Assembly: GCF_009931435.1 (NCBI RefSeq)
Contig: NZ_CP043414.1
Length of the DNA: 64,000 bases
From: Escherichia coli
GTDB lineage: Bacteria; Pseudomonadota; Gammaproteobacteria; Enterobacterales; Enterobacteriaceae
Strand: one strand, 5' to 3'
Of this stretch, positions 51,324-51,749 are shown piece by piece; position 1 is the stretch's first letter, and every line of letters begins with the position of its first letter. Position numbers and translations under genes: made by a program. The notes beneath the pieces are model-generated. The model was not told the DNA's origin. It worked only from the letters and a program-made list of their open reading frames with translations, and searched no databases.

Positions 51324-51749
51324 TTAGCAACAGCCTTCTTCTGTATGCAGCAAGGCAAAAAGTTCTGTAACTCCATTGTTATTAACCGCACTGGTTACTA
51401 ACACGTTGTGCGCTCCAGCTTCCCGTAACCAACATTTCACCAAAGATATGTGTTCCATGCTGGCTAAATCTGCTTTGGTTACTACTCCAATGACCGGGTG
51501 ATTCATGGCCCGGTAGGGCGTTTTTACCTCTAATTCCTGCCTCAGCGCTGAGATTCCTGCTTGTTGCCGGAAAAGCATATAGATTTGCATAAGTATGCTC
51601 TTTCGTATAGCCAGAATGTGTCGGATTCTGGTTGAACAGATAACGTGCCCGTTGACTTCTTTCGGAAGTGAGATTGTCATATCTGACATACATGGTCGCC
51701 CCTGTTTGCCAAGTCCCCGTGTCAAAAAGTCATCTGTGTAAGATTCCAA
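51324..51749 (-). pseudogene. yoeF: PduV/EutP-like GTPase C-terminal fragment (yoeF-like)
   Basis: Only the C-terminal part of the ORF (VIGVVTKADLASMEHISLVKCWLREAGAHNVLVTSAVNNNGVTELFALL) resembles EutP/PduV; the N-terminal domain is absent. Confidence 0.5.

Follow-up and report, generated by a model that had tools for sequence, protein, structure and literature searches.

The open reading frame considered here lies on the minus strand at positions 51324–51749 of a 64,000-nucleotide stretch of Escherichia coli DNA (contig NZ_CP043414.1), hereafter the window; it comprises 141 codons from a TTG start and is a real entry in the list of reading frames of the window. It is faced on the plus strand by sbmC (48994–49467), yeeA and tmaR, the last also known as yeeX. 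The locus is 100% identical to that of strain 504239, in which the PGAP annotation runs from tmaR through a EutP/PduV coding sequence, an interrupted IS3-family transposase and the reverse transcriptase of a group II intron to a fragment of an IS110-family transposase, and continues into cbtA/cbeA island genes. PGAP places the EutP/PduV gene of this identical locus at window positions 51324–51689, names its 121-residue product ‘EutP/PduV family microcompartment system protein’, and labels it a coding sequence rather than a pseudogene. The features of the locus are collected in Table 1.

Table 1. Features at and around the 141-codon reading frame, in window coordinates
Feature	Position	Strand	Remarks
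tmaR (yeeX), DUF496 gene	50894–51223	+	Pfam DUF496, E 2.3e-45; convergent with pduV′
Hairpin	51237–51265	.	Perfect 13-bp stem in the 100-bp tmaR–pduV′ spacer; −21 kcal/mol, z −5.0
pduV′ relic	51324–51506	-	pduV codons 88–147 and stop; TKAD kept, P-loop and DxxG gone
Deletion junction	51502–51506	-	Candidate microhomology ATGAA between pduV (codon 88 onward) and the DUF4942-family gene; in frame
DUF4942-family 5′ fragment	51507–51689	-	61 codons; own ATG at 51687–51689
IS110-family element, transposase-distal end	51690–51846	-	Continues at 55430–56642; supplies the first 20 codons of the 141-codon frame
IS3-family element (IS629-like) with group II intron	51847–55426	+	3-bp duplication CCA at 51844–51846 and 55427–55429
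IS110-family transposase pseudogene	55543–56571	-	Frameshifts and stops; from PGAP annotation of L007 and L001; ORF fragments

The hairpin in the spacer also surfaces as a self-complementary blast match, and its conservation extends to relic-bearing and pdu+ genomes alike. It is probably the terminator shared by tmaR and pduV′; a terminator consensus scan of 50800–51950 did not call it, because it has no T-run. Elsewhere in the window, gathering-level Rfam matches at 9451–9657, 20566–20604, 40112–40235 and 42974–43048 correspond to naRNA4 and algC RNA, JUMPstart, the His operon leader and STnc240, the JUMPstart element suggesting a polysaccharide or O-antigen cluster. The island region also holds an 840-codon reading frame on the minus strand (61131–63653), part of which matches K-12 yeeR and the 3′ end of flu at 99.8%; the K-12 annotation of yeeR is much shorter than this frame.

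The resemblance of the 141-codon frame to PduV is confined to its C-terminal part. A Pfam profile search returns PF10662 (PduV-EutP) with an E-value of 4.7e-12 and 46.4 bits against a gathering score of 21, a match that is limited to residues 80–135 of the frame and positions 86–142 of the 143 in the profile. The NCBIfam model TIGR02528 gives the frame 40.4 bits, below the curated cut-off of 138.35 bits, and the intact E. coli PduV P0037 183.7 bits. When this 147-residue protein is compared by tblastn with the whole window, its residues 87–147 align with 51327–51509 at 93% identity (E 2e-35). Residues 1–86 have no match in any frame of 51200–52000, even at word size 2 and E up to 100, and none anywhere else in the window at E up to 1; these empty searches, local and window-wide, rule out a frameshifted N-terminal half of PduV lingering near the frame. 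The missing part is the one that contains, in the intact protein, both the P-loop or G1 motif GPSQCGKT (residues 8–15) and the G3 motif DTPG (residues 42–45), so that neither GxxxxGK[ST] nor DxxG is found in the relic. The G4 motif [NT]KxD is present as TKAD (residues 97–100 of PduV) in the translation of 51327–51506. The initial annotation had proposed a EutP/PduV resemblance restricted to the C-terminus and the loss of the N-terminal P-loop, and both proposals are borne out by these searches.

The same annotation had given the whole of 51324–51749 to the GTPase fragment. The reading frame does exist within these limits, but the DNA derived from pduV ends at 51506, and the other 243 nt of the frame have other origins. 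The frame is a mosaic of three sources, in which pduV′ is followed upstream by the 5′ end of a DUF4942-family gene, fused to it in frame, and then by the end of an IS110-family element (51690–51749); the portion at 51507–51749 is not degraded PduV. The middle segment aligns with the 5′ end of the DUF4942 gene of an island free of insertion sequences (L011) at 77% identity over 200 nt (blastn), and 37 of 59 residues (63%) are identical to residues 1–59 of the 280-residue protein encoded there (BLASTP, E 2e-18). The gene order of that island is ...cbtA, DUF5983, DUF957, DUF4942. Proteins of the DUF4942 family, whose gene comes last in cbtA/cbeA-type integrative islands, share with the fragment the same start and the same place after the DUF957 gene, but they possess the PF13708 domain, which begins at residue 87 of the intact homologue. 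The window fragment keeps the pre-domain leader only and none of the domain itself, and its 61 residues have no Pfam match. The ATG of this fragment is the start codon that PGAP chose for the 121-residue product.

The first codons of the longer frame belong to an IS110-family element inserted immediately upstream of the DUF4942-family ATG. Its limits can be read in locus L007, which is free of the IS3-family element and otherwise collinear with the window: the element spans 9467–10836 of L007, is 1370 bp long and decayed, and corresponds to the two window segments given in Table 1. The sequences flanking it (L007 10837–11000 and 9276–9466) are contiguous in L011 (3001–3163 and 2803–3002), and a 12-nt subterminal inverted repeat stands just inside both ends (L007 9469–9480 and 10819–10830). 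The Pfam domain Transposase_20 is found on homologues of its transposase. The search of the protein database for intact close relatives of this transposase yielded only fragments or proteins of at most 59% identity; no real plasmid copies of the element were found, and no Rfam bridge or seek RNA matched within it at E up to 1. Where the IS3 insertion is missing, pduV′ is followed by the decayed IS110-family transposase, then by DUF957′, DUF5983′, cbtA and cbeA. The idea that the pduV junction is a terminus of the IS110-family element, with the deletion arising by recombination between two copies, was considered and rejected, because the IS-free island puts the element at 51690–56642 and DUF4942 coding sequence next to pduV′.

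The IS3-family element, to which the name IS629 is given tentatively, was delimited by reading its ends directly (TGAACCGCCCCGG at 51847 and CCGGGGCGGTTCA at 55426), with terminal TG...CA inverted repeats. Its OrfA and OrfB carry the Pfam domains HTH_Tnp_1 and HTH_21, and its frameshift pseudoknot is recognized by the Rfam model ALIL at 52182–52298 (117.8 bits). A group II intron about 2.27 kb long (roughly 52641–54911) interrupts the orfB gene; it includes a reverse transcriptase/maturase frame at 53298–54821 and an Rfam Intron_gpII match at 54825–54911. The left part of the IS3 element recurs in 3180 plasmid records, which marks it as an active multicopy insertion sequence. The initial annotation described the fragment as a relic abutting this element; a relic it is, but 340 bp separate the element from the pduV junction, and 97 bp separate it from the start of the frame. 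The element is a simple insertion into the older IS110-family sequence, and it is missing from many genomes in which the pduV junction is the same. It appears to be a later event, and it had no part in the truncation of pduV. The locus presents three levels of nesting, a group II intron within an IS3 element within an IS110-family remnant.

What could have been the original setting of the PduV fragment? In the DNA alignment, homology to the pdu+ arrangement breaks between 51506 and 51507, and genomes matching the window only up to 51506 have an intact 444-nt pduV that follows pduU and closes a complete pdu operon (pocR, pduF, pduA–V). This intact gene occupies the same site in pdu+ E. coli (L003, L004) and in E. 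albertii (L010), where it and tmaR/yeeX converge about 100–120 bp apart. In pdu+ E. coli the stop codon of pduV is exactly 100 bp from that of tmaR; the gene order of E. albertii is the same (pduU-pduV / tmaR-yeeA-sbmC-dacD). The cobU–tmaR interval of these pdu+ genomes contains no island, and the 183 nt of pduV′ match their pduV–tmaR region collinearly at 96% identity. Compared with the intact PduV (PF10662/TIGR02528) found at this chromosomal position and orientation, the relic is 93% identical to E. coli residues 88–147 but misses the first 87 residues, and there is no pdu operon upstream; the window has no pdu genes on that side of pduV′, where island and IS DNA are found instead. A derivation of the upstream part of the frame from elsewhere in the pdu operon was also considered, and was rejected when 51507–51900 found no match in the 47-kb cob–pdu region of one pdu+ strain. 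The presence of intact pduV at the same spot in pdu+ E. coli and in E. albertii argues that the PduV piece is a chromosomal relic left in place, and on this sequence evidence 51324–51506 is the in-place 3′ end of a chromosomal pduV, not cargo of an island or prophage. The earlier view of the fragment as the edge of a prophage remnant or island next to yeeX is supported with one refinement: the boundary does lie inside the frame, and the PduV part belongs to the backbone and is not island-borne.

One of the pdu+ genomes (L006, NZ_CP027310.1) offers some further observations on this region. Its pdu operon (27548–46114) ends at pduV, with no pduW or pduX after it. The pdu operon of Salmonella differs in this respect, having pduW/pduX beyond pduV. 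Between the cobalamin riboswitch and cobU the same genome has no cbi genes, only a 438-nt hypothetical gene. Upstream of ldtA-cobTSU a different integrative element, which is not present in the window, occupies a tRNA-Asn site (2470–24285) and encodes a tyrosine recombinase, a MobQ relaxase, a PilV shufflon adhesin, a BfpA-like pilin and RepL.

The fragment has a known counterpart in K-12, yoeF (b4538, at the right end of CP4-44), which the initial annotation had rightly singled out for comparison. This gene lies at the corresponding locus, where it converges on tmaR/yeeX at a distance of 100 bp, and contains the same pduV/DUF4942 junction; YoeF and the window frame agree at 79 of 84 positions over their last 84 residues and share nothing before. 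At the nucleotide level K-12-type DNA is collinear with the window up to 51577 at 98% identity. There K-12-type genomes have a further internal deletion, which begins at window position 51577, reaches into the IS110-family element and leaves yoeD, an internally deleted remnant of the transposase pseudogene; the element is covered to just 21% in these genomes, in two pieces. As a result of this deletion, the N-terminal 34 residues of YoeF are unrelated to those of the window frame. The window, in contrast, keeps the whole DUF4942 5′ fragment and the IS110-family remnant, and has the IS3 insertion with its group II intron in addition. The K-12 equivalent of the junction, between 2078748 and 2078749, is the annotated right edge of the cryptic prophage CP4-44, which is thereby set inside yoeF. 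A 2024 survey of the y-ome lists yoeF among the uncharacterised CP4-44 prophage genes (PMC11551758), and our literature search found no paper describing yoeF as a pduV remnant or reporting the pduV/DUF4942 mosaic. The object itself is an ordinary one, already known as K-12 yoeF and routinely annotated by PGAP, and recognition of its mosaic structure is a minor refinement and not a discovery.

The distribution of the junction was surveyed in 5426 complete E. coli genomes. The segment 51224–51860 matches 5417 of them by megablast, with nested end points. A 100-mer spanning the junction is covered to at least 80% in 4170 genomes (about 77% of the sample), and in 4972 genomes the half of this query that derives from pduV, or more of it, finds a match. 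The 5′ part of pduV together with the end of pduU is covered to at least 80% in 644 of the 5426 genomes, and the pduV 5′ part has a match of any extent in 830; among the partial matches listed, coverage is limited to the query's first 116 nt. An arrangement of this kind occurs in NZ_CP034784.1 (L009 6818–7452), where a clean deletion of about 17.2 kb joins a small gene beside cobU to pduV at approximately codon 49, with a 5-bp overlap at the junction and no island. The partial pduV pattern of this type is shown by up to 186 genomes of the sample. This allele represents a second loss of the pdu operon, independent of the island-linked junction. The operon has therefore been lost at least twice, with both events leaving a 3′ stub of pduV next to tmaR.

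What could be the mechanism by which the island-linked junction was formed? A three-way comparison with the chimera shows that the DUF4942 homologue reads ...GCG ATG AAA... and pduV ...TCA ATG AAT... at this point. The five shared nucleotides, ATGAA, are in the same reading frame in both genes, which explains why the fusion is in frame. The pattern suggests a microhomology-mediated deletion at ATGAA, a microhomology that we infer from a 77%-identical paralogue standing in for the true parent. The island of K-12-type genomes takes the place of about 17.5 kb of the pdu+ arrangement (L006 28399–45931), and on the other side homology to that arrangement ends inside the small gene next to cobU. Very probably the ancestral chromosome had a pdu operon ending in pduV about 100 bp from tmaR/yeeX, with the two genes convergent. 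A single illegitimate recombination at ATGAA would have joined codon 88 of pduV to codon ~61 of the DUF4942-family gene, with which a genomic island of the cbtA/cbeA type ended, removing pocR, pduF, pduA–U and the P-loop half of pduV, and the CP4-44-type island would now fill the former pdu space. This recombination is placed in the lineage that now makes up approximately three quarters of sequenced E. coli. Later and lineage-specific events would have been the insertion of the IS110-family element right before the DUF4942 ATG and then that of the IS629-like IS3 element, with its group II intron, into the IS110-family element.

The product of these events is unlikely to retain the activity of its ancestor. 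PduV is described as a Ras-like GTPase acting outside the microcompartment, and its N-terminal region is predicted to bind PduU (PMC4315436). With G1, G3 and the N-terminal region implicated in shell docking gone, the relic cannot act as PduV. In terms of the G-domain fold, the 60 residues retained amount to approximately the last two strands and helices, lacking every phosphate-binding element. The predicted N-termini differ between the K-12 and window lineages, and frameshifted variants are found among database proteins (P0006, P0040). The substitutions specific to the relic include four that are non-synonymous (R90H, Q106H, C112S and A138S) against two synonymous, in a tiny sample. A scan for the sigma-70 consensus found no promoter-like site in 50800–51950. 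The variable N-terminus, the frameshifts, the predominance of non-synonymous changes and the empty promoter scan all fit a neutral scar, and we infer with high confidence that the frame is a fusion pseudogene without function, that it corresponds to K-12 yoeF, and that it records the loss of pdu in most E. coli.

Among the alternatives, the fusion of the DUF4942 leader to the PduV tail could be a young functional gene whose small protein is kept by selection in most E. coli. In each of the seven loci with the relic that were read, the frame stays open between the native DUF4942 ATG and the stop codon of pduV, which, together with its designation as a coding sequence by PGAP, leaves a small residual chance that a chimeric protein is expressed. 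The occurrence of the junction in 77% of complete genomes points in the same direction, but the neutral scar of an old deletion is also expected at high frequency. The fusion, moreover, is missing the nucleotide-binding motifs G1 and G3, with only TKAD of G4 kept, and the whole DUF4942 domain; K-12-type genomes have unrelated sequence in place of its N-terminal part, frameshifted variants circulate, its changes are mostly non-synonymous, and the IS110-family insertion displaces the native upstream region. We therefore regard a selected gene as very unlikely. Equally little credence, or marginally less, attaches to a variant in which the chimera is translated, perhaps via read-out from the IS110-family remnant, as a small protein such as an interfering or moonlighting G-domain fragment outside microcompartments.

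The fragment might otherwise be a EutP/PduV homologue carried by the CP4-44-type prophage or island and truncated by the adjoining IS629-like insertion. Such an origin would agree with the grouping of yoeF with CP4-44 prophage genes in the K-12 literature (PMC11551758) and with the mobile-element DNA that the fragment adjoins. It is contradicted by the collinearity of the 183 nt with the pduV–tmaR region of island-free pdu+ genomes and by the 4972 genomes in which the pduV-derived part of the junction query, if not more of it, has a match. The IS3 element, for its part, inserted cleanly, with a 3-bp duplication, at a distance of 340 bp, and is missing from other genomes with the same junction, and the K-12 annotation itself places the prophage edge at the breakpoint of homology. 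We consider island cargo extremely improbable. Derivation from eutP, the ethanolamine operon paralogue that Pfam and NCBIfam put in one family with pduV, is next to impossible, given that the fragment is 93% identical to the product of the gene that follows pduU in the E. coli pdu operon, a protein which scores only 46.7 bits against the EutP equivalog NF012011 (cut-off 258).

Seen as fusion pseudogenes, the reading frames of the yoeF type are very probably scars of the loss of the pdu operon, neither phage genes nor working microcompartment GTPases. The relevance of this reading is small beyond annotation hygiene. Propanediol utilisation has been linked to gut pathotypes in the literature, and the exact junction, together with the island-free deletion allele, may serve as markers for when and how often lineages of E. 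coli lost this capacity.
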